NCBI GenBank assembly: GCA_964505785.1
Contig: CAZDJZ010000003.1
Span: 99,186-163,185, forward strand
DNA from: an uncultured Eubacteriales bacterium
GTDB taxonomy: Bacteria > Acidobacteriota > Aminicenantia > Aminicenantales > Aminicenantaceae
Direction: 5' to 3'
DNA: 64,000 nucleotides
Both the position numbers and the translations under genes were made by a program. Shown piece after piece: positions 16,327 to 46,510 of this stretch. The notes beneath the pieces are model-generated. The model searched no databases, was not told the DNA's origin, and worked only from the letters and a program-made list of their open reading frames with translations. Each line of letters opens with the position of its first letter. Position 1 is the stretch's first letter.

Positions 16327-17214
16327 ATGAAAAGACGAAACTTTTTAAAAGACATCGCCCTGGGGAGTATGGTGTTGAATGTACGTCCCGGTTTGTTTGC
16401 CCAGGGATCAAACATCCCGGACATGGCTGTTATTAAGGGGGATGATCCCTCCGCCATCACTAAAGCAGCGGTTGCAGGTGTTGGAGGAATGAAGCGGTTT
16501 GTTGCAAAAGGAGACAAGGTCTTGATCAAACCGAATATCGGATGGGACCGTAAACCGGAGCAGGCTGCTTGTACCAATCCGGATGTGGTTAAAACCCTGG
16601 TTGAGCTTACTTTAGAGGCAGGCGCGGATAAAGTTGTGGTCATGGATCATCCCTGCAATCCCGCCCGGAGAACCTATGTCCGTTCCGGAATCGCGGATGC
16701 CGCAAAAAACGCAGGGGCTGATGTTCCTTATCCTAATGATCACAAACTAAAGAAAGTTGCAATTAACGGCGCTTCATTGAAGGAGTGGGAAGTCTACCGC
16801 GATTTCCTTGAAGTGGACAAGATTATCAATGTCCCGATTGCCAAGCATCACAGTCTTTCCCGTTTGACATTGGGCATGAAAAATTGGCTGGGAGCCTTGG
16901 GCGGCAACCGTAATCAACTCCATCAGGGCCTGGATCAGGCTATGGTGGATTTAGCCGCATATTTCAAACCTGTTTTGACAATTCTGGATGCTTACCGGAT
17001 TCTTTACCGTAACGGTCCTCAAGGTGGCCGACTCTCTGATGTTAAAATGCAAAATACTATTGTAGCGGGAGTCGATTGGGTGGCTGTCGATGCCATAGGG
17101 GCTTCTTTTTTTGAGCTGACACCCTCAGACCTGCCTTTTTTACAAATTGCGCATGAGCGTGGATTCGGTGAAATCAATCTGGAGAAATTGAACATTGAAA
17201 AAAGAGCGATCTAA
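16327..17214 (+). CDS. DUF362 domain protein with twin-arginine signal
   Basis: MKRRNFLKD carries the RRxFLK TAT motif. KVLIKPNIGW...TNPDVVKTLVE...VVVMD is typical of DUF362. Confidence 0.75.
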   Translation: MKRRNFLKDIALGSMVLNVRPGLFAQGSNIPDMAVIKGDDPSAITKAAVAGVGGMKRFVAKGDKVLIKPNIGWDRKPEQAACTNPDVVKTLVELTLEAGADKVVVMDHPCNPARRTYVRSGIADAAKNAGADVPYPNDHKLKKVAINGASLKEWEVYRDFLEVDKIINVPIAKHHSLSRLTLGMKNWLGALGGNRNQLHQGLDQAMVDLAAYFKPVLTILDAYRILYRNGPQGGRLSDVKMQNTIVAGVDWVAVDAIGASFFELTPSDLPFLQIAHERGFGEINLEKLNIEKRAI

Positions 17215-19219: not shown

Positions 19220-20194
19220 TTATTCGTCACTGATTTTTTTCAATTCCGTTTTTAAATGCGGAATCACCTCAAACAGGTCTCCAACCACCCCGAAATCAGC
19301 GACTTTGAATATCGGGGCTTCCGGGTCTTTATTGACCGCCACGATAAATTTGGACGAAGACATTCCGGCCAGATGCTGGATCGCTCCTGAGATACCGAAA
19401 GCCATATATAAATTCGGAGAAACGGTCTTTCCCGTCTGCCCAACCTGGTGCTGATGGTCGACCCATCCGGAATCCACTGCAGAGCGGGAACTTCCCATTG
19501 CGGCATGCGGAAGCACTTGGATTAAATCACGAAGCAGATCGAAATTCTCAGGTCCTTTCATTCCCCGTCCTCCTGAGACGATGATTTCCGCTTCAGTAAT
19601 ATCTAATTCCGATCCCTCTTCATGGGAAACGTCGGTGACCGGATCTTTAACCTGATTCTCAGAAAGGGCGTATTCTTTTTTTATGGCGGTCCCTTCGGTC
19701 TTTGACTCTTCCAAAGGAAAAACATTAGGCCGCAGACTGGCAATGGCCAAGGGGGATGTAAAGCCGAACGTCGCCAGGGCCTTACCGGCAAAAACAGGAC
19801 GCGTAACCTGAAGTTTTCCATCCGCGGCCGAAGTCGCGATGCAGTCTGAAGCCAGGCCGGATTCCATCAAACCGGCGAAACACGGCGCTAAATCGCGCCC
19901 CATGGATGTTGCGGGAAAAAAGACGGCAGCGGGTTTGATTTCTTCTGTTAATTGTTTCAAGCCCTCGGCATACGCAGACGAAGAATAACGGCTCAGTAAA
20001 GGATTATCAATGAGGTAAACCTTATCCGCCCCATATGTAAAAGCCTGGCCGGCTAATTCATCCAATTCGTGCCCGGCTAGAACAGCCGCGGTTTCCATAT
20101 TCAAATCCAGGCTGCGGCGTTTGGCTTCACTGAGTATTTCCCAAGACGATTTTTTTATTTTATTATCTCTGACTTCCAAGAACGTGAGTATCAT
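19220..20194 (-). CDS. etfA: electron transfer flavoprotein alpha subunit
   Basis: C-terminal FAD-binding signature LYMAFGISGAIQHLAGM. 324 aa. Directly follows etfB. Confidence 0.9.
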   Translation of the reverse strand: MILTFLEVRDNKIKKSSWEILSEAKRRSLDLNMETAAVLAGHELDELAGQAFTYGADKVYLIDNPLLSRYSSSAYAEGLKQLTEEIKPAAVFFPATSMGRDLAPCFAGLMESGLASDCIATSAADGKLQVTRPVFAGKALATFGFTSPLAIASLRPNVFPLEESKTEGTAIKKEYALSENQVKDPVTDVSHEEGSELDITEAEIIVSGGRGMKGPENFDLLRDLIQVLPHAAMGSSRSAVDSGWVDHQHQVGQTGKTVSPNLYMAFGISGAIQHLAGMSSSKFIVAVNKDPEAPIFKVADFGVVGDLFEVIPHLKTELKKISDE

Positions 20195-20205
20195 TTTGCC
20201 TCCTC

Positions 20206-20988
20206 CTATATTATTTTAGCCTCATCATGAAGAAATTGAACCAGTTGGCGGGCTGCTTCCTTGGGTTCTTCTTCTATCTTTTTGCCGGCTTCCCTCTCGG
20301 GAGGAGATTCCATTTTTATCAATTCCAAAGCCGGTTTCAAATCCGCCGGATTCAAACCCAGGTCTTCCAAGGTTACTGCAGGAACCTGTTTCCGTTTAGC
20401 CATCATAATTCCCTTTAATGTTTCATACCGCGGCTCATTCAATCCCTTTTGTGCACTGATGACCGCCGGCAGGGTAAATTCAATCTTTTCCGCCGCACCT
20501 TCAATTTCCCGCCGTGCTGTGCCTTTGCGTCCGTTCCATTCCAGTTTCGTAACCACGCTGACCTGGGGAAGATCCATCATCGCGGCAACCATTCCAGGAA
20601 CTTGGGCATTATCATCTCCAATAGACTGTTTCCCGAATAACAGCAGGTCATATTCCTGATATTTTGTTTTCAATGCCTGCGTAATGATGCGTGCGATCCT
20701 TAACCCGTCATATTGTTCGGGGGTTTCGTCCTTAATAAGAACGGCCTCATCCACTCCCATTGCCAGCGCTTTCTTGAGGGTGGAAACGGTCTCATCCGGC
20801 CCGATGGAAAAGGCGGTTATTGTCCCGCCCTGGGCTTCCTTAATCTGAAGGGCTTCTTCCACGGCGAACTCGTCATAAGGATTGAGTATATAATTCAAAT
20901 CATCGTCCTTGATCCGGTTTTCTCCTTGGTCAATAAGAATTTTGGATTCTGAATCAGGAACTCTTTTTACAAAAACATAAATATTCAC
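20206..20988 (-). CDS. etfB: electron transfer flavoprotein beta subunit
   Basis: The N-terminus (V)NIYVFVKRVPDSE is typical of EtfB. The GTG at 20988 is preceded by GAGGAGG; the track start at 21015 is less likely. Confidence 0.9.
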   Translation of the reverse strand: MNIYVFVKRVPDSESKILIDQGENRIKDDDLNYILNPYDEFAVEEALQIKEAQGGTITAFSIGPDETVSTLKKALAMGVDEAVLIKDETPEQYDGLRIARIITQALKTKYQEYDLLLFGKQSIGDDNAQVPGMVAAMMDLPQVSVVTKLEWNGRKGTARREIEGAAEKIEFTLPAVISAQKGLNEPRYETLKGIMMAKRKQVPAVTLEDLGLNPADLKPALELIKMESPPEREAGKKIEEEPKEAARQLVQFLHDEAKII

Positions 20989-21080
20989 GCCAAACCTCCT
21001 CTTTACCGGCACCACCGCCAGGAGTCATCTTGACTCGCTGGCAATCCGGAGCGCTGTTGGATTAAAAATTATATGCTTGA

Positions 21081-30163: not shown

Positions 30164-31486
30164 ATGAAACTAAAGACTTTTCCACACGGCATTCATCCTC
30201 CGGAATACAAAGAATTGACCAAGGACCAGCCTTTGGAACCGCTTACCCCACCTAAAAAAGTCTTCATCCCTCTTTCTCAGCATTTCGGCAAACCCGCCCA
30301 ACCTGTCGTCAAAAAGGGAGACGAAGTTCTTTTAGGTCAAAAAATCGGAGAAAGCCAAGGCTTGTTTTCAGCATGTATTCATGCAAGTGTTTCCGGAAAG
30401 GTAACCAAAATTGAAGATTATCCCCATCCCCTGGGGCGGCCCGTCCCGGCCATCATCATCACCAATGATGGAGAGGACAAGCTCCATCCGGATTTAAAAG
30501 GCAGTAAGGATCCCTTTTCCCTTACACCCGAAGAAATCCGGGAGCGGGTAAAAGAGGCGGGAATCGTCGGGATGGGAGGAGCTGCCTTTCCCACCGCAGT
30601 CAAGCTGGGCCCTCCTAAGGATAAGCCTATTGACGCCGTCATTATCAACGGCTGTGAATGTGAGCCTGTTCTTACCTCGGATTACCGGATCATGCTTGAA
30701 CACACTGAAGATGTCCTGAAGGGGGCGGAATTGGTGCGGAAAGCGGCCGGAGCCAAAAAACTCTATATCGGAATCGAAGACAACAAAAAAGAGCTCTATG
30801 ACATCTTCACCGAAAAAAGAAAGGATATTTCCTGCGAAATCATTCTGCTGAAGACTAAATATCCTCAAGGTGCGGAAAAAAACCTCATCCAGGCCGTACT
30901 GGGCCGAAAGGTCCCCAGAGGGGGGCTTCCCTTTGACGTCGGCGTGGTTGTCCAAAACGTCGGAACCGCCAAGGCGGTTTGGGATGCAGCAGCGAGCGGC
31001 ACCCCGCTTTTCCAGCGGGCAGTGACGGTTTCGGGGTGGGGAATTCAAGAACCGAAGAACCTTATGATTCGAATCGGAACTCCTTTTCAACACGCCATTG
31101 AATTTTGCGGCGGCCTCAAAGAAGACAGCAACATGCTGGTTATGGGCGGCCCCATGATGGGGCTGACTCAATGGACCGCCGATGTCCCGGTGATAAAGGG
31201 CACATCCGGTATTTTATCCTGGCGGGAAGCAGATGTTCCGCAAGAATACACCTGCATCAGGTGCGGACGATGCGTGGAGCACTGCCCCATGAAACTGGCA
31301 CCGACTCAATTAATGAGATACACCCAATATGACCTGATGAGCGAAGCCGAAGAATGGGGGATTATGGATTGCGTGGAATGTGGATGCTGCCAATATATAT
31401 GTCCGGCTCATATTCCTCTGGTGCATTGGATGCGCCTGGGAAAGAATATCATTGCAAGCAAAAAACGAAAAAAGAGTTCCTCATGA
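30164..31486 (+). CDS. rnfC: Rnf electron transport complex subunit C
   Basis: GMGGAAFPT NADH/FMN site plus CIRCGRCVEHCP and CVECGCCQYICP. 440 aa. Confidence 0.9.
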   Translation: MKLKTFPHGIHPPEYKELTKDQPLEPLTPPKKVFIPLSQHFGKPAQPVVKKGDEVLLGQKIGESQGLFSACIHASVSGKVTKIEDYPHPLGRPVPAIIITNDGEDKLHPDLKGSKDPFSLTPEEIRERVKEAGIVGMGGAAFPTAVKLGPPKDKPIDAVIINGCECEPVLTSDYRIMLEHTEDVLKGAELVRKAAGAKKLYIGIEDNKKELYDIFTEKRKDISCEIILLKTKYPQGAEKNLIQAVLGRKVPRGGLPFDVGVVVQNVGTAKAVWDAAASGTPLFQRAVTVSGWGIQEPKNLMIRIGTPFQHAIEFCGGLKEDSNMLVMGGPMMGLTQWTADVPVIKGTSGILSWREADVPQEYTCIRCGRCVEHCPMKLAPTQLMRYTQYDLMSEAEEWGIMDCVECGCCQYICPAHIPLVHWMRLGKNIIASKKRKKSSS

Positions 31487-32457
31487 GCAATAACATTTTT
31501 ATTATCAAATCATCTCCGCATTTTCGTGACCGGGATTCCATCCCGAAAATTATGTATGCCGTAGTCCTGAGCCTGCTCCCGGCTGTTATAGCTTCCCTTT
31601 ATTTTTTCCGGCTCCGCGCACTGGTTATTTATCTCATCTGCGTAGCAACATGTCTGGTGACGGAAACCCTGTTTTTAAAGGTCAGGAAAAAACCCATATC
31701 AGCCCTGCTGGATGGATCTGCGGTTATCACCGGTTTATTATTGGCTATGACTCTCCCCCCCGGGCTGTCTTATGAGCTGGTTGTTATTGGGGCGGTCGCA
31801 GCCATGGCCCTCGGCAAACAGGTCTTCGGAGGCCTTGGTTATAATATTTTTAATCCCGCGCTGGTCGGCCGGGCTTTTCTCCAGATTGCTTTTCCAGTAG
31901 CCATGACCACCTGGATGCCGCCCGCCACCCTATCCGTCGATACGGCCACGTTTGCAACACCGCTGGGGAATCTTAAATTTGAAAACGCCCTCTCTGAAGG
32001 GACCCTTACCCCGCTGACCGACTTATTCTGGGGCAATACCGGAGGATGCATCGGAGAAACATCTGCGGCCGCGCTGCTGCTGGGCGCCGCTTTTCTTTTA
32101 TTCAGAAAAACCATTGACTGGCGCATCCCCCTGGGCATTATAGGTATATTAACCATTTTTACCGGCATTTTTTGGTTGGCGGACCCCTCCCGATTCGCAT
32201 CTCCGCTTTTCCATATTTTAGCAGGCGGCTTGTTAATCGGAGCGTTTTTTATGGCCACTGACATGGTAACCTCTCCTTTTGCCCCCGGTGCCACCTGGAT
32301 ATATGCATTGGGAATCGGCCTGATGATCGGTTTGATTCGATTATTCGGCGGCTTTCCGGAAGGAGTTATGTTTTCCATCCTGTTCATGAATACATTTGTC
32401 CCCCTTCTTAACCGGTATGTCCGGCCCAAGATTTTGGGTGAAAGGAGGGGGCAATGA
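31483..32457 (+). CDS. rnfD: Rnf complex subunit D
   Basis: Polytopic membrane protein with FFMATDMVTSP (NqrB/RnfD FMN-attachment region). The start MSNNIF overlaps the rnfC stop as ATGA. The track ORF start at 31354 lies inside rnfC. Confidence 0.9.
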   Translation: MSNNIFIIKSSPHFRDRDSIPKIMYAVVLSLLPAVIASLYFFRLRALVIYLICVATCLVTETLFLKVRKKPISALLDGSAVITGLLLAMTLPPGLSYELVVIGAVAAMALGKQVFGGLGYNIFNPALVGRAFLQIAFPVAMTTWMPPATLSVDTATFATPLGNLKFENALSEGTLTPLTDLFWGNTGGCIGETSAAALLLGAAFLLFRKTIDWRIPLGIIGILTIFTGIFWLADPSRFASPLFHILAGGLLIGAFFMATDMVTSPFAPGATWIYALGIGLMIGLIRLFGGFPEGVMFSILFMNTFVPLLNRYVRPKILGERRGQ

Positions 32458-33047
32458 ATCTTACCGCCAGAATGATTATTGTTCTCACCGTAGTGGGATT
32501 AGTGTCCGGATCCTTTCTCGCGGTTGTAGGGATGCTGACCGAGGAACGTATTGAACAGAACCGGCTTGAAGAAATCAATAGGGCGATCACCGAAGTTGTT
32601 CCGGGCGCTGCTTCCGGAGAAATTGTTTATGAGGGAGACAGCATGACCGTTTATGCCGGACAGGACCGGGAAGGAAATCAAGTTGGTTACGCCCTGTATA
32701 CATCCGGAACCGGTTTTCAGGATATCATCACTTTGATGGTGGGTGTTGACCCCTTAGTCACGGAAATTCATGATTTGACGATTTTAGAGCAAACGGAAAC
32801 ACCGGGGCTGGGAGCGAAAATCACTTCTGATAAAGAATATCTTCGTTTCTGGAAAGACCGCACCGCTGAAAAAAACCTGAAGCTTCGGAAACCGGCCGTG
32901 GATTCTCCTGAACAGTTGGATACGCATGAAGTCAATACTATTACCGGCGCCACTATTTCCGCCCAGAAAGTCGTGGATATTGTTAATCGCGCCTTGGAAA
33001 AAATGAAATCACTTAAGCAGGAAGGACAACTGGGAGGCAAAGATTAA
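32454..33047 (+). CDS. rnfG: Rnf complex subunit G (FMN_bind)
   Basis: N-terminal TM segment, with NTITGATISAQ as the covalent-FMN (S/T)GAT motif. Confidence 0.85.
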   Translation: MNLTARMIIVLTVVGLVSGSFLAVVGMLTEERIEQNRLEEINRAITEVVPGAASGEIVYEGDSMTVYAGQDREGNQVGYALYTSGTGFQDIITLMVGVDPLVTEIHDLTILEQTETPGLGAKITSDKEYLRFWKDRTAEKNLKLRKPAVDSPEQLDTHEVNTITGATISAQKVVDIVNRALEKMKSLKQEGQLGGKD

Positions 33048-33048
33048 A

Positions 33049-33663
33049 ATGGCGAAAAAAAGCATAACCTCCGAATATTTAAAAGGTCTATGGGATGAAA
33101 ACCCGGTATTTCGCCAACTTCTGGGCATGTGTCCCGTCTTAGCGGTAACAAACGCGCTTATCAACGGAATCGCTATGGGCTTGGCAGCATCCTTCGTTCT
33201 CATTATGAGCTCTCTTGTTGTCTCTTCCATAAAAAAACTGATCCCCAGCCAAGTCCGGATTGCCAGTTACATCGTTATTATCGCTTCTTTCGTGACCATC
33301 GCCGACCGGGTCCTGGCTGCGTATTTTCCTCCGATCTCCAAAGCATTAGGGCCGTATGTCCCGCTGATTGTGGTTAATTGCGTTATTCTCGGCCGGCAGG
33401 AAGCTTTCGCTTCTAAAAATTCCGTAGGGCGTGCAGTTATTGACGCCCTAGGAATGGGAACCGGATTCACATTAGCCCTGATGGTACTGAGCTCCATCCG
33501 GGAATTGCTGGGTACCGGAACCATTTTAGGGTACCAAGTGATGGGCAGCTGGTTCAAGCCATGGATCATCATGATTCTGCCCGCCGGAGCTTTCATTACC
33601 CTCGGCATCCTGCTGGGATTGGTCATGTTGATCGAGACTAAGACAAAAACCGGGAGCGCATGA
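33049..33663 (+). CDS. rnfE: Rnf complex subunit E
   Basis: NqrD/RnfE-type membrane protein with GMCPVLAVT. 204 aa. Confidence 0.85.
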   Translation: MAKKSITSEYLKGLWDENPVFRQLLGMCPVLAVTNALINGIAMGLAASFVLIMSSLVVSSIKKLIPSQVRIASYIVIIASFVTIADRVLAAYFPPISKALGPYVPLIVVNCVILGRQEAFASKNSVGRAVIDALGMGTGFTLALMVLSSIRELLGTGTILGYQVMGSWFKPWIIMILPAGAFITLGILLGLVMLIETKTKTGSA

Positions 33664-34238
33664 TGGATCTTTTTACCATATTAATACTGGCAGTTTTTGT
33701 TAACAATTTTGTTTTATATTATTTCTTGGGCATTTGTCCTTTTCTTGGAGTCAGCAAGAAGATCGACTCTGCTTTTTCCATGGGAATGGCAGTGACCTTT
33801 GTCATGACCATCACAGCAGTTGTGTCCTGGATGATCAATCACTGGATTCTTATTCCCAATAACTTGAGTTATCTTCAGATTGTCACCTTCATCCTGGTTA
33901 TAGCTTCCTTGGTCCAGCTGGTGGAAATGTTCATTCGCAAAATGAGCCCCCCCTTGTACCAAGCATTAGGGATTTATCTGCCTCTCATCACAACCAACTG
34001 CGCGATAATGGGTTTGGCCCTTCTGGCCGCCTTGAAGGAATATGACTTTATCACCACCGTCGTCTTCGGAGTCGGTTCCGGACTTGGCTTCACCCTGGCT
34101 ATTGTCCTGATGGCCGGTATCAGGGAACAATTGGATATGGCGGATGTCCCCGAACCACTCAAAGGTGCAGGAATCGCATTAATCGTCGCCGGAATTATGG
34201 CCTTGGCCTTTACCGGCTTTTCAGGGATGATTCAATAA
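33660..34238 (+). CDS. rnfA: Rnf complex subunit A
   Basis: NqrE/RnfA-type membrane protein with LGICPFLGVS. 192 aa. Confidence 0.85.
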   Translation: MMDLFTILILAVFVNNFVLYYFLGICPFLGVSKKIDSAFSMGMAVTFVMTITAVVSWMINHWILIPNNLSYLQIVTFILVIASLVQLVEMFIRKMSPPLYQALGIYLPLITTNCAIMGLALLAALKEYDFITTVVFGVGSGLGFTLAIVLMAGIREQLDMADVPEPLKGAGIALIVAGIMALAFTGFSGMIQ

Positions 34239-35044
34239 TGGATATGTTAATACCGATTATAACCATGGGAGCGCTGGGCTTCCTTTTTTCAGTGGGTCTG
34301 GCTGTTGCCTACCAAAAATTAAAGGTTGAAGAAGACCCAAAGGTTGAAAAAATATCAGAAATTCTTCCTCAGGCCAATTGCGGCGCTTGCGGATATTCCG
34401 GCTGTCATGCCTTTGCCCAAGCCGTCGCCGCCGGAAAAGCAGAGCCGGCCGGATGCCCGGTGGGGGGAAGTGAAATTTCAGAAAAAATCGCCGGCATTCT
34501 GGGGGTGGAGTCTACGGAAACGGTTAAAAAAATCGCCCGGCTTCACTGCCGAGGAACGAATGACGCTGCTAAATCCAGAGGGCAATATATAGGGATTACC
34601 ACATGTGAAGCGGGCCACTTAGTCGGAGGCAACAAACAATGCGTCTACGGCTGCCTCGGCTTTGGTGATTGTGTCCGGTCCTGCCCGTTTGACGCCATCA
34701 AAATGGGAACAGACGGCTTGCCGGTCGTCGATGAAAACAAATGCACCGCCTGCGGAAAATGTGTGGACGCCTGTCCCCGCAACCTTTTGGAGCTTCATCC
34801 TCTTTCTCAAAATATACTGGTTTTCTGCCGTTCCCGGGACCGCGGCCCTTCCGCAAAAAAAGCCTGTAAAAACGCGTGTATCGCCTGCGGAATATGCGCT
34901 AAGGCCAGTCCCGACGCCATTGTGGTGGAGGACAATCTTGCTGTCATAAAAGATTCCAAGAAAATTGAACCGGACCATATCGAAAAAATCGAAAAATGTC
35001 CGACCGGTGCTATCGGCCGGCTTAGAAAAGATAATGAAGGATGA
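34238..35044 (+). CDS. rnfB: Rnf complex subunit B
   Basis: N-terminal TM segment, CGACGYSGCHAFA cluster, and ferredoxin motifs including CTACGKCVDACP. Confidence 0.85.
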   Translation: MDMLIPIITMGALGFLFSVGLAVAYQKLKVEEDPKVEKISEILPQANCGACGYSGCHAFAQAVAAGKAEPAGCPVGGSEISEKIAGILGVESTETVKKIARLHCRGTNDAAKSRGQYIGITTCEAGHLVGGNKQCVYGCLGFGDCVRSCPFDAIKMGTDGLPVVDENKCTACGKCVDACPRNLLELHPLSQNILVFCRSRDRGPSAKKACKNACIACGICAKASPDAIVVEDNLAVIKDSKKIEPDHIEKIEKCPTGAIGRLRKDNEG

Positions 35045-35474
35045 AGGCATCGTGATTTCCACACAGGGAGAAATGGCTGAAGTGGAAGTGTCCTGCCTTG
35101 AGGGATGCCATGACTGTTCCGCCCGGAGCCTATGCGGTGTCGATACCCAAAAAAAAGGCTCCTTGAAGGCTTTGAATTCAGCGGGAGCTCACTCCGGCGA
35201 TACGGTCAGTCTTGATATTCCCGATTCCACTTACAACCGTCATTTAATCAGGCTGTTCGGCGGTCTTCTCGCCGGCGCCGTCACCGGTGCTTTCATGGGT
35301 TATATTCTGTCCCGGTATATTCCCATATCTGCAGATTTTTCAGCATTTCTCGGGCTCTTCCTGGGAGGAGGAGTCTCCGGATGGATGCTTTTTCATCAAT
35401 TGCGCAGGGATTCCCGGAGTATATATCCCGTCATAACCGGCATTATCCCGCAAAAAGGAGAATCAAATGGATAG
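35034..35474 (+). CDS. RseC/MucC (SoxR-reducing system)-like small membrane protein
   Basis: Has the N-terminal beta-rich part GIVISTQGEMAEVEV..C..C, followed by two TM helices. This is the usual position after rnfB. Start at MKDEG (35034). Confidence 0.6.
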   Translation: MKDEGIVISTQGEMAEVEVSCLEGCHDCSARSLCGVDTQKKGSLKALNSAGAHSGDTVSLDIPDSTYNRHLIRLFGGLLAGAVTGAFMGYILSRYIPISADFSAFLGLFLGGGVSGWMLFHQLRRDSRSIYPVITGIIPQKGESNG

Positions 35475-39315: not shown

Positions 39316-40704
39316 TTAAGACAAATATTCATGAATGCTTTTAGCAGCCTTGCGGCCGTCGCCTAAGGCCAGGATAACTGTCGCATTACCGCGGACAGCA
39401 TCTCCGCCGGCGAACACGCCGGGTATATTTGCAGCCAGATGTTCATCTACCTGGATCTGGCCCCAGCGATTGACTTCGAGCTCCTTGGCCCGGCTTAGGA
39501 AAAGACGGTTGGGTGTGCTTCCCAACGCTTCGACCAGTGTCTCGCAATCCAAACTGTATTCGCTTCCTTCGATTTTCACAGGCCGCGGGCGCCCGCTTTC
39601 ATCCGGCTCAGATAATTCCATCTTAAACATCTCCACTTCTTTTAACCAGCCATCATCATCTCCGGTAAGCTTCTTAGGTGAAACCAATTCCTGGAAGATC
39701 ACTCCTTCCTCCAAAGCATGCTGGACTTCCTCATCTCTGGCCGGCGCTTCTTTTTTTGTGCGCCGGTAAAGAATATAAACCTTCTCTACTCCCAGCCGCA
39801 GAGCGCAGCGGGCGGCATCCATGGCCACATTCCCGGCCCCGATGATACCGATTGTCTTTCCGCATTCAATCGGCGTATCATAATCCGTAAATTTATAAGC
39901 CTTCATCAAATTGACTCTGATAAGAAATTCATTGGCGGAATAAACTCCTTTTAAATTTTCTCCCGGAATTTTCATGAAAAGCGGAGCTCCTGCCCCTGTC
40001 CCAAGAAAAACGGCCTGGTAATTTTTCAGGAGCTCGTCAAAACTCAGGTTTTGACCGACAAAAAAATTCAGCTTGATATCCACTCCGATTTCATTCAAAA
40101 AATTTATCTCATAATCAACAATTTCTGTTGGAAGCCGAAAAGCGGGTATCCCGTACTGAAGCACACCACCGGCCTTGTGGAGGGCCTCGAACATTGTTAC
40201 CTGGTAGCCCTGTCTGCGTAAATCCACGGCGCAGCTGATCCCCGCAGGACCGGACCCGACCACGGCCACTTTTTCCGGCCGTTCCCGGATATGAAATTCC
40301 TCCTTGATGCCTCTTTTCCTTGCCCAATCCGCGACAAAAGCTTCCAATTTGCCAATATTGATTCCATTTTCACGGTGATAGAGCGGGCACACCCCTTCAC
40401 ACTGGGTTTCCTGCGGGCACACTCTTCCGGTTATGGCAGGAATAGGGTTATCCCGTTTCATAATAAAAAACGCACTCCGGAAACGCCCCCAGGAAACATT
40501 CCGGATCATCGCCAGTATCTTCATATTGATGGGACAGTCACTTTCACAGGGAACTCCGCTGCATTGAATACACCGGCGGGCTTCCCGGACAACTTCGTCT
40601 TCATTGTATCCATGGGGAACAGAAAAAAAATTATGGATTCTTTTATTTGGATCCTGTTCCCGCATCGGAACCCTTGTCCCTCCCAGCTTAATCATGATCG
40701 ACAC
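39316..40704 (-). CDS. nfnB: NfnB / GltD / SudA-like NADPH-dependent FAD Fe-S oxidoreductase (large subunit)
   Basis: N-terminal PMREQDPNKRIHNF...CIQCSGVPCESDCP, and dinucleotide fold VAVVGSGPAGISCA. 462 aa. Overlaps the preceding gene. Confidence 0.85.
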   Translation of the reverse strand: MSIMIKLGGTRVPMREQDPNKRIHNFFSVPHGYNEDEVVREARRCIQCSGVPCESDCPINMKILAMIRNVSWGRFRSAFFIMKRDNPIPAITGRVCPQETQCEGVCPLYHRENGINIGKLEAFVADWARKRGIKEEFHIRERPEKVAVVGSGPAGISCAVDLRRQGYQVTMFEALHKAGGVLQYGIPAFRLPTEIVDYEINFLNEIGVDIKLNFFVGQNLSFDELLKNYQAVFLGTGAGAPLFMKIPGENLKGVYSANEFLIRVNLMKAYKFTDYDTPIECGKTIGIIGAGNVAMDAARCALRLGVEKVYILYRRTKKEAPARDEEVQHALEEGVIFQELVSPKKLTGDDDGWLKEVEMFKMELSEPDESGRPRPVKIEGSEYSLDCETLVEALGSTPNRLFLSRAKELEVNRWGQIQVDEHLAANIPGVFAGGDAVRGNATVILALGDGRKAAKSIHEYLS

Positions 40705-41548
40705 CTATTTTCCGGCGATAATCCTGTTCCGCTTTTATTTCCTTTTTTTTAAACATTTCCAGCCGGCTGATCACGTCATCGAAATCGATTTTATGCGCAT
40801 CAAATTCAGGACCGTCAATACAGGCCAGTTTCATCCTGCCGTCAATGTACGCCCGGCATCCCCCGCACATTCCTGTCCCGTCCACCATAATTGTGTTTAA
40901 ACTGGCAATTGTAGTAATATTTTTATCCTTTGTTACACGGGCAGCCTCCCTCATCATAGCCGGTGGGCCAATGGTGATCACACGGTCGACTCCAGGACCT
41001 TGGAAGCAGCTTGATTCGTCGATAACCTTTTGCAGGACATCCGTCACAAATCCCTTATGCCCACGGGATCCGTCATCCGTCGCCACCAATACATTTTGAC
41101 TGCAATCCCGCAATTCTTTTTCCAGAATCAGCATTGAGACTGTCCTGGCTCCTATAATGGTGGTTACCGTGTTGCCGGCCTGAGACAATGCTCTGACAAT
41201 AGGGTAAATGCAGGCAATCCCGGTTCCTCCTCCTACACATATCACCCGGCCGAACCGTTTTATCTCGGTTGGATTTCCCAAGGGTCCCACGCAATTCAGA
41301 ATTTGATCGCCCTCCTTCCAGGTGCTGAGTTCTAAAGTGGATTTCCCAACCACTTGGAAAATCAACGTAATCGATCCTGCGCGCACATTCACATCCGCAA
41401 CGGTTAGAGGAATCCGTTCACTTCGTTCATGCATGCGGATGATAACGAATTGTCCGGCTTGAAATCTGTCGGCCACATGAAACGCATCCAGTTCAATCAA
41501 AAATATTTCCGGGTTAAGCATCCGTTTGTGAATAATCCTGTGACTCAT
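40688..41548 (-). CDS. nfnA: NfnA / SudB-like FAD/NAD(P)-binding [2Fe-2S] subunit (PyrK-like)
   Basis: RIPLTVADV and MVDGTGMCGGCR...ACIDGPEF motifs. 286 aa. Its ATG overlaps the ferredoxin TGA (ATGA at 41545-41548). Confidence 0.85.
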   Translation of the reverse strand: MSHRIIHKRMLNPEIFLIELDAFHVADRFQAGQFVIIRMHERSERIPLTVADVNVRAGSITLIFQVVGKSTLELSTWKEGDQILNCVGPLGNPTEIKRFGRVICVGGGTGIACIYPIVRALSQAGNTVTTIIGARTVSMLILEKELRDCSQNVLVATDDGSRGHKGFVTDVLQKVIDESSCFQGPGVDRVITIGPPAMMREAARVTKDKNITTIASLNTIMVDGTGMCGGCRAYIDGRMKLACIDGPEFDAHKIDFDDVISRLEMFKKKEIKAEQDYRRKIGVDHD

Positions 41549-41772
41549 GATGCCGCCTCATTCAACTCCTCAGCCACCCAAATAGCAAAGTCGGGGCAAA
41601 ACATCTCACACAGGCCGCAATTGAGACACTTTTCCGGTTTAACAACCACAGGGGTACAGACACCGCGGCTGTTTTTGTTTTTGCCCAATTCCAAAACGCC
41701 TGTTTGGCAAACCGCCGCACATATCCCGCATCCTTTACAGCGGTCCTGAATAACGACAACTTCAACTTTCAT
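41545..41772 (-). CDS. 2x[4Fe-4S] ferredoxin (OFOR delta-subunit-like, 75 aa)
   Basis: CKGCGICAAVC and CLNCGLCEMFCP. I chose the start at MKVEVVV (41772). The track ORF start at 41853 lies inside the upstream gene. Confidence 0.8.
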   Translation of the reverse strand: MKVEVVVIQDRCKGCGICAAVCQTGVLELGKNKNSRGVCTPVVVKPEKCLNCGLCEMFCPDFAIWVAEELNEAAS

Positions 41773-42577
41773 GATGATTGAGTTCCTTGTCTCCGGCAGC
41801 AGGCGTAAACCGGCCCAAAATAATGGGGCCGGGACAACGCAAGTCCATTTCACTCGAGGGTTCCTGATAACGCATCTCAGAAAAACGATTGAGAAAAGAC
41901 ATTCTTTCCACCGGGTTCAAAATTTCTCTGTTTTCAGCCCGGAATATCACACAGGGCGAGACCATCTCAACAACAGACAACCCATCCGCCGACAGGGCAT
42001 CAATCAAGGTATGCCGCATCCATCCTGCTCTGAGAGGATTCCAGCGGGCAATCAATCCGGCGCCAGCCTTGTAAGAAAAATAGGGAATATTAAAGGGCAA
42101 ATCACTTTCTCCGTCTATGCTGGAACGCATGAAAGGCGTCAACGGATAGGCCCTGTCCCGGCTCAAGGTATAGATTATATTATTGATGATGATCAAAACC
42201 AGGTCATCCTGATTTTTTCCCGCGTCCAGAATATCTTGCCCCCCGGTTAAAAGCATATCGGAGTTGTTAATCACAGCAACCGCTTTTGTCTGCAGCTTTT
42301 TTCTTTTCCACTCCGCAGCGGCGGCAACAACAAATCCATTGTCAGCCGAATGCGCAGACACACTCAAACAATCAGAGACTCTTCCCGTGCATCCGGTTCC
42401 GCTGAATACACTGAGTTGAGATTGAATGCCCATTTCCTTAGCCGCTTCAAACAAAGCATAGAGAGCGGTTCCGATTCCGCAGCCGGAGCACCAAACTGTA
42501 GGAAAAGCATCCAGATTCAGGAAATCATCCTTGGGATGAGTTCGGTCATCTGCATTATTCTTTACATCTGGAATCAT
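41762..42577 (-). CDS. 2-oxoacid:ferredoxin oxidoreductase beta-subunit-like protein, paralog 2 (non-canonical ThDP motif)
   Basis: WCSGCGIG, SGTGCTG and SPC cysteines are placed as in KorB/PorB. The ThDP/Mg region reads VAVINNSDMLLTGGQDILDAGKNQDDLVLIIINNIIY, where GDGD...NN is expected. Confidence 0.7.
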   Translation of the reverse strand: MIPDVKNNADDRTHPKDDFLNLDAFPTVWCSGCGIGTALYALFEAAKEMGIQSQLSVFSGTGCTGRVSDCLSVSAHSADNGFVVAAAAEWKRKKLQTKAVAVINNSDMLLTGGQDILDAGKNQDDLVLIIINNIIYTLSRDRAYPLTPFMRSSIDGESDLPFNIPYFSYKAGAGLIARWNPLRAGWMRHTLIDALSADGLSVVEMVSPCVIFRAENREILNPVERMSFLNRFSEMRYQEPSSEMDLRCPGPIILGRFTPAAGDKELNHHES

Positions 42578-43350
42578 TTTTTTTCCGAAAAATGGCCGAC
42601 ATAAAATTCATTGAGGTCCCGAAGTTCCAGTTCTTCCCAGGCAGCTTGATGATTAATACAAGCATTGTTTAAAAACAGCTTCATTCTATCCAGGTTTCCC
42701 GAAGGGTTTTCCGCCCCGGCATAGTACATGAGACAGGGGGATACGATTTCCAAGAATGAAAATCCTGGCTTTAGCAAGGCCGCACGCAAGGAGGACATTA
42801 GGCGGCGGCAATGCAATGGAGTCCAGCGGGCAATCACCGAAGCTCCGCTTCGATTGGCAAATGCGGGCAGATTGAAAAGAACCTCCGGCTTCGACAGATT
42901 CCGGCATCTTTTTTGAAGACTGAGAACATGGAAGATAAAACTATTGAAATAAACAACGATCACATTTCGGCCGGAATGACAGGCCTTGACCATTCCTTCC
43001 AGGCCGTGAACCATAATATCAGAATCCTGAATAAAAATAATGGTTTTCGTGCCCGGCCTTATTTCCCTGCTGTTTAGAGCGGTTAAGAAAGGATCTTTCC
43101 CTTGAGCATGAATTGTATTTAATTTAACATACCCGATTATTTTCCCTGTACAGCCCAGTCCGCTTGAAACCAGCCGGATCTTTTCAAGAGGTAAAGAATT
43201 TTTTTTCAGGGATTGGATAAACGTATTAACGACTATTCCAATGCCGCATCCGGAACACCAAACAGAAGGCATCGCATCAAATTTCAAAAAGAGCGCATCC
43301 GGATGCTCTTCCCTAATTGCCATAACCAGAAATTTTGGCGTATCAATCAC
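42574..43350 (-). CDS. 2-oxoacid:ferredoxin oxidoreductase beta-subunit-like protein, paralog 1 (non-canonical ThDP motif)
   Basis: WCSGCGIG, SGLGCTG and SPC cysteines. The ThDP/Mg region reads IIFIQDSDIMVHGLEGMVKACHSGRNVIVVYFNSFIF. GTG start with no obvious RBS. Overlaps paralog 2 by 4 nt. Confidence 0.65.
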   Translation of the reverse strand: MIDTPKFLVMAIREEHPDALFLKFDAMPSVWCSGCGIGIVVNTFIQSLKKNSLPLEKIRLVSSGLGCTGKIIGYVKLNTIHAQGKDPFLTALNSREIRPGTKTIIFIQDSDIMVHGLEGMVKACHSGRNVIVVYFNSFIFHVLSLQKRCRNLSKPEVLFNLPAFANRSGASVIARWTPLHCRRLMSSLRAALLKPGFSFLEIVSPCLMYYAGAENPSGNLDRMKLFLNNACINHQAAWEELELRDLNEFYVGHFSEKK

Positions 43351-43479
43351 AAGTTGTCAAGCCAAAAGCAGTTTGGGGTTTGCATTAGACGCCTTTATTG
43401 CTGTCATAATATCCATCATGCCTCTCGGGTTTTTTCGTGAATCGCTTCGTGGTTTTGCGCATTTTTAAGTTTATGGATT

Positions 43480-44841
43480 TCATTCAATATTGTAATTTTT
43501 CATCTTATAACTCAACATTCTTTCCGTCAGCCCCAAAGCACGGGCTGTCCGGGCTTTAATTCCCCCATTTTCCCGCAGAGCCCTTTTTATTTCCCTGGTT
43601 TCCAGCCGTTTGATTTTTTCCGGCAGGGAAAGGTCTTCAGTACAGAGGTCTCCTTCCTTCTTTTCTTCTAAAAATACCGGAAGGTCGCTTCTGACGATAT
43701 CCTCTTCTTCGGCAAAAACCACAGCCCGTTCAATAATATTTTCCAGCTCCCGTATATTCCCGGGAAAAGAATAATTCATAAGCTGGTTCATGGCTTCCCT
43801 TGATACTCCCCGGATTTCCTTCTTCTCCCTCCGGCTGTATTTCCGGATAAAATGATCGGTAAGAGCCGGGATGTCTTCTTTCCTTTCCCGCAACGGCGGG
43901 ACATGGATTCGAACCACATTCAGCCGGAAATACAAGTCTTGACGGAATTGATTTTGCCGCATCAGATCTTCAAGGTCCCGGTTCGTCGCGGCCATGATCC
44001 GGACATCAGCCTGAATGGGCTTTGAAGAACCCAGCCGGAAAAAATTCCGGTCCTGGAGAAAGCGCAGCAATTTCACCTGACTTGAAAGCGGCATATCTCC
44101 AATTTCATCCAGAAAAAGCGTCCCCCCTCCGGCTCCTTCAAATTTCCCTGTTTTGCGTTCATGAGCGCCTGTGAACGCACCCTTTTCCGATCCGAATAAT
44201 TCACTCTCTAATAGAGTTTCAGGAAAAGACGGAATATTTACCGCCATAAAGGGGCCTTCTTTTCTCCGGGAAGAATAATGAATGCTGCGAGCGACCAGGT
44301 CTTTTCCGGTTCCGGTTTCCCCGGATATCAAAACCGTGGCTTCGCTTTCGGACGCTTTGACCATAAGATGCACAACTCTCTCCATTGCAGCGGATTGAAA
44401 AACAAAATTTTTTGCACTGAATTTTTGTTCCAGTGAACGGCGCAGCTGCTTCACTTCCCTTCGCAGCTTTTGACGCTCCAGCGCCCGGGAAATAACCAAT
44501 AAAAAATTATCAAAATCAATGGGCTTCGGGATAAAATCATAAACACCTTTTTTCATGGCTTCAACCGCGGTTTCGACATTGCCGTAGGCTGTTACCATAA
44601 TGATGGTTATAAGAGGATTCGAAAATAGAATCTTTCGTGTAACATCCAGCCCTGTTTCTTTTTCCAGTCGAAAGTCAACTACAGCGAGATCCACTTGTTG
44701 ATTCTCTAAAATCTGAAGGGCACCCCGGCTTCCGGCTGCTTCAAAGACCTGGTAATTCTCGCCTTCTAGATTCTCCCTGATCAATTCGCGCTGCATGGCA
44801 TCGTCTTCAATGATTAGAATATTCGCTCGGCTCATTTTCAT
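43480..44841 (-). CDS. sigma-54-dependent response regulator (NtrC family: receiver + AAA+ + Fis-type HTH)
   Basis: Receiver with DLAVVDFRLE. AAA+ Walker A SGETGTGKDLVA and the sigma-54 contact loop GSEKGAFTGA. C-terminal HTH ...ARALGLTERMLSYKMK. Confidence 0.9.
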   Translation of the reverse strand: MKMSRANILIIEDDAMQRELIRENLEGENYQVFEAAGSRGALQILENQQVDLAVVDFRLEKETGLDVTRKILFSNPLITIIMVTAYGNVETAVEAMKKGVYDFIPKPIDFDNFLLVISRALERQKLRREVKQLRRSLEQKFSAKNFVFQSAAMERVVHLMVKASESEATVLISGETGTGKDLVARSIHYSSRRKEGPFMAVNIPSFPETLLESELFGSEKGAFTGAHERKTGKFEGAGGGTLFLDEIGDMPLSSQVKLLRFLQDRNFFRLGSSKPIQADVRIMAATNRDLEDLMRQNQFRQDLYFRLNVVRIHVPPLRERKEDIPALTDHFIRKYSRREKKEIRGVSREAMNQLMNYSFPGNIRELENIIERAVVFAEEEDIVRSDLPVFLEEKKEGDLCTEDLSLPEKIKRLETREIKRALRENGGIKARTARALGLTERMLSYKMKNYNIE

Positions 44842-46073
44842 TCTCCAGGTAATATGATGGTGAAAGTCGTCCCTTTTTCCGGTGACGAAAAAAGCCGGGT
44901 GCTGCCGCCGTGAGCTTCAATGATTTTTCGGGTAAGAAATAAACCCACTCCCATTCCCTTGTTTTTCCGGCTGAAAAAAGGTTCGAAAATATGCTCGGCA
45001 TCTTCCGGATCAATTCCCGGACCCGTATCCCGGACAGTGATCCGAATCCCCGGTCTTTCATTGGCAGCCCTCATCATGACTTTATTTCCCCCGGCAGCCT
45101 CCACCGCGTTTTCTATTACATTATAGAGAGCCTGCCGCATGAGGTTGCGGTCTCCCTTAAATGACACCTTGTTTTCCAGTGAGAACTTTATATTCGAATC
45201 TGGATACCGGTTGTTTAATGAAAGAATGACCTCTTCCGCCAGGTCTTTGAAGTTAAAGGTTTCACGCTTGATCCGCAGGGGTTTGAGTGCGGCGGAAAAA
45301 CGGTCGATAATCTCAGCGATGATTTTAACTTCTGCTTTCCCTTTTGATGTCAGGGCCGTGACCGAATCATTTCCTTTTTTCTGCATCAACTCCATAAGCA
45401 AGGACAAGCGGTTCAGAGGATTTTTGATTTCATGCGCGACCCCGGAGGTGAAAGCCGATATTTCCCGGAAGCGTTCTTTCTGCCGAACCTGCTCATCCAA
45501 TTCACGGACTTTTTGCACGTAACGGTTTTGGATTTGGAAAAGCCCAATGTAGAATAGAATCCCGGCACCCCCTATAGCTCCCAATAAAATCCAGAACAAG
45601 CGCTCTGACCTGGCCAGCATTCCCTCCAAGTTCTCCAGGGAATAGCCCAGATAAAGATAATAAGTTTGTCCCTGTCCGGTTTTTACAGAAGAAAGCAGGT
45701 TGAAAATTTTCCCGATAGGTGAATCAATAATCCATGAGTCCCGGCCCTTGTTTTCCTGAGAAGCCAATGGAAGATAACCTTCGAACCGTGTTCTCCAATC
45801 CAGCGGCGCTAATGTATTATCTAAAAGGGCCATAAAATGGATCGTCTCCGCCTGGTCATAACGATCTAGAATTTCCCTTGGTGCCGTCTCCCTTTCCAAT
45901 GCCCGCAAAATATCCGCTTTTAAAATATCGGCTTGTGCACGAAGCTGATCCTCCACTAAATGCTCGACCCGGTCGCGAATCAGGCTTCGGTTGATGGAAG
46001 AAAAAATAAAAAACAAAACAATAAAGCCCAAAAACGGCATATAAAAAAACAGCAGAAAATGTCTTTTTTTCAA
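44838..46073 (-). CDS. sensor histidine kinase (two TM helices, periplasmic loop, HisKA + HATPase_c)
   Basis: H-box SGVAHEIKNPLN, with G-boxes VRDTGPGI and GMGVGL. I chose the start at TTG 46073 (MKKRHFLLFF, AGGA upstream). The track start is a TTG at 46115, overlapping the upstream gene by 28 nt. Confidence 0.85.
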   Translation of the reverse strand: MKKRHFLLFFYMPFLGFIVLFFIFSSINRSLIRDRVEHLVEDQLRAQADILKADILRALERETAPREILDRYDQAETIHFMALLDNTLAPLDWRTRFEGYLPLASQENKGRDSWIIDSPIGKIFNLLSSVKTGQGQTYYLYLGYSLENLEGMLARSERLFWILLGAIGGAGILFYIGLFQIQNRYVQKVRELDEQVRQKERFREISAFTSGVAHEIKNPLNRLSLLMELMQKKGNDSVTALTSKGKAEVKIIAEIIDRFSAALKPLRIKRETFNFKDLAEEVILSLNNRYPDSNIKFSLENKVSFKGDRNLMRQALYNVIENAVEAAGGNKVMMRAANERPGIRITVRDTGPGIDPEDAEHIFEPFFSRKNKGMGVGLFLTRKIIEAHGGSTRLFSSPEKGTTFTIILPGE

Positions 46074-46087
46074 TCCTGCTTTTTCCT

Positions 46088-46510
46088 TCAGCGCCGCCGG
46101 TGCCTGCCCCGCCAATTGGGAAATCCGTATTTATCCCTGAGTTCTTTGATTCGGTCCTCAAATGTGATCTTGCGGGCGATAATATGACGCAATTCCCCTC
46201 CCCTCCGGGTAACAGAGCCGGTTATTTTGACTTGTTGTCCCGGCTGCAAATCCCAGTCTAAAAACCATTCAGGACAAAGTTCAACGCTGAATATTTCCCC
46301 AGCAGCCTTATCTTTAATATGGATAATCAGGAATTGGGCCCGTCCCCGGTACCTCGGCTCCTCCTCGGAATGCTGGATAGTCCCTTCCAGGATTATTTCC
46401 CTGTCAGAATGATAAAAATATTTATTCGGCTGGCTCATAGCGGGAGAAACCATCAAAAAAAATAAGATCCCCCCCCAAATGATAGTTGTGCTCTTTATAA
46501 ATACGTTCAT
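46088..46510 (-). CDS. small secreted/periplasmic protein of unknown function, first gene of the two-component block
   Basis: Signal-like N-terminus MNVFIKSTTIIWGGILFFLMVSPAMSQ, a beta-rich core and a C-terminal ...LRDKYGFPNWRGRHRRR. GAGG lies upstream of the ATG at 46510. Confidence 0.55.
   Translation of the reverse strand: MNVFIKSTTIIWGGILFFLMVSPAMSQPNKYFYHSDREIILEGTIQHSEEEPRYRGRAQFLIIHIKDKAAGEIFSVELCPEWFLDWDLQPGQQVKITGSVTRRGGELRHIIARKITFEDRIKELRDKYGFPNWRGRHRRR

Follow-up and report, generated by a model that had tools for sequence, protein, structure and literature searches.

A putative iron-sulfur wire derived from a 2-oxoacid:ferredoxin oxidoreductase is encoded with NfnAB in uncultured bacteria and archaea

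Five overlapping genes on an Aminicenantales contig

The subject of this study is a cassette of five minus-strand genes (g1 to g5; Table 1) in a 64,000-nt stretch of DNA (hereafter the window; positions 99,186 to 163,185 of contig CAZDJZ010000003.1, assembly GCA_964505785.1) from an uncultured bacterium that is labelled Eubacteriales and placed by GTDB in the Aminicenantales (Acidobacteriota). The cassette encodes two paralogous relatives of the beta subunit of 2-oxoacid:ferredoxin oxidoreductases (OFORs), termed beta1 and beta2, followed by a delta-type ferredoxin and by two proteins of the NfnA and NfnB type. An initial reading of the bare DNA (the original prediction) had described these genes as one unit running from 43350 to 39316 with overlapping or abutting stop and start codons, and all five open reading frames (ORFs) were found at the positions it gave, with an overlap at every junction. 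Direct reading of the sequence revealed an ATGA overlap between g1 and g2 (42577–42574, AAAATGATT), and the same type of overlap joins g3 to g4 (41548–41545, CATCATGAGT). The g2 and g3 genes share 11 nt (with the ATG of g3 at 41772 and the TGA of g2 ending at 41762), and the overlap of g4 and g5 amounts to 17 nt if g5 begins with GTG 40704 and to 8 nt if it begins with ATG 40695. The start codons of g1 and g5 are uncertain, with other gene callers choosing the ATG at 43323 for g1 and the ATG at 40695 for g5. A sigma70-like element (TTGACA-17 nt-CAAAAT, 43332–43360, minus strand) overlaps the start codon GTG 43350 of g1; if this element is real, ATG 43323 would be the true start of g1 and the mRNA would be nearly leaderless.

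Table 1. Genes of the cassette and candidate regulatory genes upstream of it (window coordinates)
Feature	Coordinates	Strand	Length or basis
g1, beta1, divergent OFOR-beta (PP-domain) paralog	42574–43350	(-)	258 aa, or 249 aa from ATG 43323
g2, beta2, second OFOR-beta paralog	41762–42577	(-)	271 aa
g3, delta, OorD/KorD-type 2x[4Fe-4S] ferredoxin-like subunit	41545–41772	(-)	75 aa
g4, NfnA/NfnS-type subunit, FAD/NAD-binding with [2Fe-2S] site	40688–41548	(-)	286 aa
g5, NfnB/NfnL-type subunit	39316–40704	(-)	462 aa, or 459 aa from ATG 40695
Sigma54-dependent response regulator, candidate regulator	43480–44841	(-)	Pfam domains; directly upstream of the cassette
Histidine kinase, candidate regulator	44838–46115	(-)	Pfam domains; upstream of the response regulator

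The GC content (0.46–0.49) and skew of the operon are the same as those of the remaining window, and a recent horizontal acquisition was rejected on these grounds. A decayed operon or a set of pseudogenes was likewise rejected, since all five ORFs are intact and their arrangement recurs in approximately 20 distinct loci. Moreover, purifying selection is evident in both beta clades, in which many positions do not vary.

The beta proteins keep the OFOR-beta cluster ligands and lose the thiamine diphosphate motifs

The g1 and g2 products are paralogs with 28% identity (E 1e-32). There were zero Pfam matches for g1 and only a 22.7-bit match to TPP_enzyme_C for g2, and the curated NCBIfam cut-offs were not reached by either protein with OGOR-beta (88.9 bits for g1 and 101.2 bits for g2; cut-off 364) or with TIGR02177 (51 and 70.5 bits; cut-off 261.9). 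The possibility had been raised beforehand that a profile search might place both proteins in an already characterised family with a known partner; no such family emerged, with scores of 51–101 bits across the OFOR-beta models against curated cut-offs of 262–438. The closest solved relative of both is OorB of H. pylori OorDABC (8ys5_C; E 4.5e-19 for g1 and 2.4e-20 for g2). AlphaFold2 models of g1 and g2 (with predicted local distance difference test scores of 85.6 and 87.3, respectively) matched OFOR beta subunits first and the PP domains of other thiamine diphosphate (ThDP) enzymes next when compared with Foldseek, the top matches being 8ys5_C for g1 (TM-score 0.73) and 6n2n_B and 8ys5_C for g2; over both proteins, the TM-scores of these matches ranged from 0.66 to 0.73. 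Judging from these models, both proteins are predicted to have the OFOR-beta PP-domain fold.

For a comparison of functional residues, 231 beta-like sequences were clustered, yielding four groups, i.e., canonical OorB (n = 74), a beta1 clade (n = 27), a beta2 clade (n = 35), and a mixed alpha-less clade that takes in the archaeal copies (n = 80). The proximal [4Fe-4S] cluster of HpOorB is bound by Cys19, Cys22, Cys53, and Cys202 (PMC12307629), which align with C32, C35, C67, and C206 of g1 and with C30, C33, C63, and C209 of g2 (in CxxC, GC, and SPC motifs), and these four Cys are 98–100% conserved in all four groups.

In contrast, the motifs S-G-D-G-D, I-G-G-N-H, A-R-R, N-N-x-I-Y-x-M-T-G-G-Q, and T-G (TSTG), which are 97–100% invariant in canonical OorB, have given way to other residues in each of the three alpha-less groups. 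Mg-ThDP is bound in StOFOR by GDG and by the second Asn of NN (Asn118b), and the ThDP-activating Glu is supplied by the alpha subunit (PMC5020499). GDG is present in 98–100% of the 74 canonical sequences and in 0 of the 142 alpha-less ones. In g1 it has become Q-D-S (Q/N/S-D-S across the beta1 clade) and the Mg-ligand Asn has become Ser (N136-S137; Ser or Gly across the clade). In g2 it has become N-N-S (N-N-A/S across the beta2 clade), with NN kept (N132-N133) and the Asn retained throughout the clade, which also has a new clade-specific motif, PLRAGW. The ThDP/Mg site is thus intact in neither beta1 nor beta2, and their PYR partner is absent. The claim that g1 and g2 are paralogs carrying the signature of the OFOR beta subunit therefore stood in part, i.e., the paralogy, the iron-sulfur signature, and the fold are kept, whereas the ThDP/Mg signature is lost.

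A delta ferredoxin next to an ordinary NfnAB pair

The g3 product, previously described as a 75-aa 2x[4Fe-4S] delta-type ferredoxin, matched Fer4 families in Pfam, has eight Cys in two CxxCxxCxxxC motifs, and adjoins a beta gene. Its best NCBIfam models agree with that description, all of them scoring below their cut-offs (OGOR_delta, 61.8 vs. 125 bits; OorD, 60.8 vs. 93 bits; TIGR02179, 40.2 vs. 60.05 bits). In related loci, the delta gene invariably lies between the beta and NfnA genes.

The original naming of g4 and g5 as NfnA/SudB-like and NfnB/GltD/SudA-like was borne out by scores above curated cut-offs, i.e., 372 bits (cut-off 220) for g4 with PRK06222 (SudB/NfnA-like) and 542 bits (cut-off 472) for g5 with TIGR01316 (NADPH-dependent GltA/NfnB-like). 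Both are full-length homologs of characterised NfnAB (NfnSL): g4 scored 285 bits against P. furiosus NfnI (5jca_S) and 253 bits against T. maritima NfnAB (4ylf_A), and g5 scored 533 and 516 bits against the corresponding large subunits (5jca_L and 4ylf_B). The two pairs are also alike in cofactor motifs, N-terminus, both Arg residues treated below, gene order, and gene overlap. The [2Fe-2S] motif of g4 is of the Asp-plus-three-Cys type (VDGTGMCGGCR...ACIDGP) and aligns with that of PfNfnI-S, while g5 has Fer4_20 as well as Pyr_redox_2 domains and was assigned two [4Fe-4S] clusters, the bifurcating flavin adenine dinucleotide (FAD), and an NADPH site. A true bifurcating NfnB has been distinguished from the look-alike Fnor by an extended N-terminus, Arg333, and an nfnA gene directly upstream (PMC12221290, 2025). 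All three are found in g5, with the first Cys pair after its extended N-terminus at 45/48 (42/45 if numbering begins at the ATG), with Arg323 at the position of P. furiosus Arg333 (and Arg190 at that of Arg201), and with the upstream nfnA gene overlapping it. On this comparison, g4 and g5 constitute a bona fide, ordinary NfnAB that is predicted to bifurcate.

An NfnB with 65% identity, from Methanothrix-type archaea, sits in a plain NfnA-NfnB pair without beta or delta genes. In a neighbour-joining tree, which carries no support values, this free NfnB was basal to all 29 cassette-linked NfnBs, a suggestive sign only that the latter may form a clade of their own. At least 28 of the 120 closest NfnB homologs apparently share a contig with a beta match (as judged from the identical size of the longest contig), and the OFOR-derived part appears to be an add-on that travels with the Nfn part.

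Alpha and gamma are absent while NfnAB is co-conserved

No alpha or gamma subunit gene had been seen in the 64 kb by the first reading, and three types of searches were equally empty. None of the POR_N, PFOR_II, and POR domains of Pfam occurred in the 45 window ORFs that were scanned (the 5 of the operon and 40 others of at least 150 aa), and phmmer with reference alpha and gamma sequences retrieved nothing among all window ORFs of at least 50 aa. Applied to 73 canonical loci, the same screen recovered both subunits in 72. Profile hidden Markov models (HMMs) were also made, from 121 sequences for alpha and 115 for gamma, and searched with every filter disabled against all six-frame segments of at least 40 aa; their best E-values were 0.66 and 0.18, i.e., noise.

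To obtain neighbour statistics, two competing HMMs (alpha-less vs. canonical) were run over 174 sequences, comprising 173 fetched loci and the window, and split the beta-like ORFs without ambiguous cases into 46 alpha-less and 162 canonical ones, the former representing approximately 20 distinct loci from several phyla. An alpha gene (counted within 4 kb) accompanied 0/46 alpha-less and 151/162 canonical betas, and a gamma gene 3/46 and 153/162, respectively. Conversely, NfnA neighboured 38/46 alpha-less betas and 1/162 canonical ones, and NfnB 41/46 and 1/162. Those alpha-less ORFs that had no Nfn gene nearby were on truncated contigs or were the second beta of Hdr-embedded clusters, and gamma was limited to a distinct delta'-beta-gamma sub-type. 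It had been suggested that orthologous loci might turn out to carry alpha and gamma genes, as would a decayed OFOR operon, or that the beta genes might not be co-conserved with nfnAB; the loci point the other way on both counts, with no alpha at all, gamma only in the said sub-type, and the Nfn genes retained in bacterial as well as archaeal metagenome-assembled genomes (MAGs). In one archaeal locus (L005), a canonical alpha gene lies approximately 7 kb downstream of the cassette, past genes for HdrA, a Fer4 protein, and an FrdA-like protein, where it probably starts a separate OFOR operon.

The alpha-less triads of the delta'-beta-gamma sub-type (with an 87-aa delta') were located at 7732–9375 of L089, 7735–9382 of L090, and 6780–8427 of L092, and adjoin two-component regulators and HdrCB.

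Distribution and related architectures

The exact window proteins were found on two Logan contigs with an identical layout. The full beta-beta-delta-NfnA-NfnB block is present in Aminicenantes, Acidobacteriota, 'Eubacteriales'-labelled, and WOR-3 MAGs of the GTDB species set, in a Thermoplasmatales MAG chromosome and related contigs, and on further metagenome contigs. In the Thermoplasmatales-type loci, HdrC/HdrB-like genes lie upstream of the block and genes for a ferredoxin and HdrA downstream of it, and on one scaffold a FlpD/ferredoxin gene is inserted in the block, with HdrA/MvhD following. A second architecture has a single beta gene (in the order NfnA-like, delta', beta, delta, NfnA, NfnB, HdrA), with a delta'-beta(-gamma) set and HdrCB nearby. 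Because this single-beta architecture exists, the invariant core is beta-delta-NfnA-NfnB. The nearest canonical relatives are ordered delta-alpha-beta(-gamma), like OorDABC.

In the Thermoplasmatales MAG chromosome (CP070724; L003 9861–10542 and L011 11819–12634), the cassette NfnB is truncated to 227–271 aa and a DDE transposase lies approximately 2.5 kb downstream; this truncation may reflect decay or an assembly artefact.

A profile search of 1.84 billion cluster representatives returned 152 proteins at E <= 1e-30, approximately 30 of which scored above 200 bits, so that the alpha-less beta family is small (approximately 30 clusters at 50% identity). Ten longer proteins among the best 150 matches were considered as candidate Rosetta-stone fusions and rejected. 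Most of them were fusions of the canonical type (beta-gamma, domain II-beta, or delta-beta) that matched TPP_enzyme_C strongly, and in two of the ten only one type of domain was recognised. No fusion of beta to an Nfn or Hdr domain was present in these ten according to Pfam.

A probable ThDP-free wire on the low-potential branch of NfnAB

The sequence comparisons suggest that the cassette encodes a bifurcating enzyme of the Nfn type to which a recycled piece of an OFOR has been added as an accessory module, and all of its known carriers are uncultured. The reading that we favour, and to which we would give an even chance of being correct, is that the OFOR remnant acts as a ThDP-free carrier with four [4Fe-4S] clusters, by which the ferredoxin site on NfnAB's low-potential branch is either lengthened or replaced. 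The five products would then form one soluble iron-sulfur flavoprotein assembly, composed of a bifurcating NfnAB core and a delta-beta2-beta1 module. This module would derive from an OorDABC-type 2-oxoglutarate:ferredoxin oxidoreductase that lost alpha (PYR), gamma, and the ThDP/Mg site while keeping its chain of four [4Fe-4S] clusters, of which delta has two and beta1 and beta2 have one apiece. The delta protein, a clostridial-type ferredoxin, would dock at the free-ferredoxin site beside the distal cluster of NfnB, and the bifurcating FAD would send the electrons of its low-potential branch through the NfnB clusters to delta, beta2, and finally beta1. In canonical OFORs, the wire leads from ThDP to the beta cluster, the two delta clusters, and ferredoxin (PMC12307629); the proposed module would be that wire run in reverse and lacking ThDP at its end, and it would be expected neither to bind ThDP nor to have 2-oxoacid:acceptor activity. 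The idea that the OFOR beta fold has been re-used as an iron-sulfur wire or adaptor was already part of the original prediction, and gains support from the approximately 100% conservation of the cluster Cys combined with the loss of ThDP-site residues in every alpha-less clade.

As such, the remnant would serve as a built-in ferredoxin or adaptor joining Nfn to a specific partner. No obvious electron partner is encoded beside the window operon. In other lineages, the beta-delta-NfnAB core lies inside HdrABC/MvhD clusters, from which it follows that the wire probably connects Nfn to Hdr-type modules in several of them.

A number of points weigh against the proposed wire. It needs a terminal acceptor, and none was identified in the 64-kb window; that the five proteins bind one another is something we infer; all members of the family are MAG or metagenome sequences, with no cultured member; and training of the HMM classes behind the 46/162 split drew in part on the same sequences, a circumstance that does not bear on the neighbour counts. 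Moreover, the former ThDP site retains conserved positions (N132 at 100% and D107 at a minimum of 92%), 88% of the beta1 sequences still have the Asp, all of the beta2 sequences (100%) still have NN, E/F-H-K stands as a new motif where canonical sequences have MTGGQ, and g1 has two extra Cys (C124 and C181) that are 100% conserved in the beta1 clade. Such conserved residues and new motifs make a residual ligand site possible. At the positions of C124 and C181, canonical OorB has Ala and Val; judging from this conservation pattern, the two Cys of beta1 could form a further metal site or a redox-active pair.

The same residues figure in an alternative that we regard as rather unlikely, in which beta1 and beta2 form a heterodimer with a catalytic role of its own. 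Its former ThDP pocket, located where two PP-type domains meet, would bind another ligand or substrate, or would bind ThDP non-canonically with beta1 standing in for PYR, making the complex an NAD(P)H-linked and possibly bifurcating oxidoreductase of some substrate. The PYR and PP domains of ThDP enzymes share one fold, as is also visible in the Foldseek lists, and the two paralogs have degenerated in a complementary way, beta1 keeping the Asp and losing the Asn and beta2 doing the reverse; nevertheless, both Gly of GDG are gone, as are the motifs lining the canonical site (IGGNH and MTGGQ), and a search for a conserved new Glu capable of activating ThDP found none. The near-invariance of N132 and D107 and the new motifs (E/F-H-K, PLRAGW in beta2, and C124/C181 in beta1) would fit a new site, as would the gamma subunit (the coenzyme A-binding domain III) that a related sub-type keeps without alpha, yet no conserved substrate-related genes surround the cassette. 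Finally, the long retention of two distinct paralogs suggests a role beyond that of a passive wire, against which it must be set that a single beta is enough in the Hdr-embedded variant, where it follows an NfnA-like-delta' unit.

Alternatively, the genes might be co-transcribed while their products act separately, with an ordinary NfnAB next to an independent beta1-beta2-delta multi-cluster carrier (in effect a large dedicated ferredoxin) that exchanges electrons transiently with Nfn and others. The NfnAB pair is indistinguishable from free NfnAB by the features compared here, its 65%-identical NfnB relative exists without beta or delta, and neither beta-Nfn nor delta-Nfn fusions occurred in the ten long proteins scanned from the best 150 matches. 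This arrangement nonetheless strikes us as improbable, as the strict beta-delta-NfnA-NfnB order with stop/start overlaps from bacteria to archaea is typical of stoichiometric complexes, delta in canonical OFORs is a tightly bound subunit and no free carrier (PMC12307629), and the cassette-linked NfnBs appear as a clade of their own.

That the cassette contributes to a conventional OFOR, in which alpha and gamma encoded elsewhere join beta1 and/or beta2 and delta, and NfnAB re-oxidises the enzyme to yield an NAD(P)-linked 2-oxoacid oxidoreductase or synthase, is very hard to credit. In its favour, the window shows no more than 64 kb of the genome, OFORs of the canonical alpha-beta-gamma-delta type do occur directly before NfnB/HdrA-type genes (L064, L075, L087, and L088), and the archaeal cassette of L005 has a canonical alpha downstream. 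Against it, this L005 alpha probably begins its own operon, none of the alpha-less betas of the approximately 20 loci has an alpha within 4 kb, and the scores fall far under every curated OFOR-beta cut-off. The reading is further disfavoured by the loss of the ThDP/Mg and active-site motifs, which do not vary in betas that have an alpha partner.

Beyond these readings of the single cassette, it is conceivable, if doubtful, that the alpha-less betas represent an unrecognised connector or catalytic class for flavin-based bifurcation, either creating a new redox site between two PP-type domains or hard-wiring the low-potential outputs of Nfn and Hdr to each other, with ferredoxin-independent supercomplexes and an undescribed substrate or coupling as the consequence. 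In such a class, beta-delta' or beta-gamma would replace the beta1-beta2 pair in other lineages.

Relation to known systems and possible significance

Nfn is a central NADH/NADPH/ferredoxin balancing valve in anaerobes and has been regarded as an enzyme of two subunits whose ferredoxin is free. While characterised Nfn consists of just these two subunits, three iron-sulfur proteins are translationally coupled upstream of it here and co-conserved with it. For beta1, beta2, and delta, the closest relatives in sequence and structure are those of OorDABC (H. pylori 8YS5 and M. marinus OGOR 6N2N), which has the same four proximal-cluster Cys ligands and the same two-cluster layout of delta. In contrast to OorDABC, the cassette has no OorA (PYR and domain II) and no OorC (gamma), its betas have lost GDG, IGGNH, and MTGGQ, it has two beta paralogs rather than one, and its order is beta-beta-delta rather than delta-alpha-beta-gamma.

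A comparable evolutionary logic applies to the FdhA-like 'Molybdop' protein that is free of the Mo/W-pterin and occurs in HdrABC-MvhD-FdhB clusters, the nearest precedent in concept, and to FhcB, both of which have been described as cofactor-less scaffold relics (PMC12054007). There as here, cofactor ligands were lost from a catalytic subunit that is nevertheless conserved in a bifurcating cluster. The FdhA-like protein belongs to an unrelated family (molybdopterin oxidoreductase vs. the ThDP fold), making this an analogy and no homology.

Also related are the canonical OFORs of L064, L075, L087, and L088, whose betas are the nearest canonical relatives of beta1 and beta2 and whose iron-sulfur subunits likewise adjoin NfnB/HdrA/MvhD/HdrBC. 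Unlike the cassette, these OFORs keep alpha, gamma, and the ThDP motifs, and are presumably real 2-oxoacid enzymes. In L064, L075, and L088, the canonical delta-alpha-beta-gamma operon is followed by a 1120-aa NfnB/HdrA fusion, MvhD, and HdrBC, while the order in L087 is Mdh, SucCD, HdrCB, OFOR, HdrA, MvhD, Fer4, FrdA-like, and [NiFe] hydrogenase. These four loci look like 2-oxoacid synthases hard-wired to bifurcating modules and to enzymes of the reverse tricarboxylic acid (TCA) cycle, an arrangement of which we found no description.

The original prediction also knew of no described complex with the cassette's composition. In agreement with this, a full-text literature search yielded no description of alpha-less OFOR-beta paralogs or of a five-subunit Nfn in surveys of Nfn and bifurcation, in an HdrA-cluster survey, in single-cell genomics of deep-sea Chloroflexi, or in the structure papers on OorDABC and StOFOR; most subscription journals lay outside the search, so that a prior description is possible.

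If the wire proposed above is real, a conserved five-subunit Nfn with a built-in four-cluster wire would change models of electron flow in its carrier lineages, among them Aminicenantes and further groups that abound in sediments and the subsurface and are known from metagenomes alone. Such an Nfn would likewise present a clear case in which a ThDP-enzyme subunit survives purely or mainly as an iron-sulfur scaffold; in a parallel manner, complex I recycled parts of hydrogenases and formate dehydrogenases. In addition, automatic annotation at present names cassette genes '2-oxoglutarate ferredoxin oxidoreductase subunit beta' or 'glutamate synthase small chain', and such annotations can falsely signal a TCA or reverse-TCA capacity in metabolic reconstructions of MAGs.

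Regulatory and neighbouring genes in the window

The histidine kinase and response regulator genes upstream of the cassette (Table 1) have counterparts upstream of the cassettes of L007 and L010 and are missing in L008, L012, and L093. In the 129-nt spacer between the response regulator gene and g1, no match to a sigma54 promoter (TGGCAY-N5-TTGCW, with up to two mismatches) was found, and across the window there were fewer matches to this consensus than expected by chance (41 vs. 57). The cassette may nonetheless be under the control of the adjacent two-component system. The sole perfect match to the sigma54 -24/-12 consensus in the window lies at 2414–2429 on the plus strand (TGGCATAAATTTTGCA).

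A complete Rnf cluster (RnfC, D, G, E, A, and B; 30164–35474, plus strand), followed by an RseC/MucC-like gene, is convergent with the cassette at a distance of approximately 4 kb. Rnf was considered as a partner of the cassette and rejected, since the Rnf cluster is no conserved neighbour in orthologous loci. Other low-potential redox genes in the window encode a DUF362 protein and a 531-aa polyferredoxin (16327–18790, plus strand), and genes for the beta and alpha subunits of an electron transfer flavoprotein lie at 19220–21015 (minus strand). Finally, a 254-aa ORF at 3044–3808 (minus strand) contains only the SelB winged-helix domains 2 and 3 and may represent the C-terminal part of a selenocysteine elongation factor whose gene is split or mis-framed.

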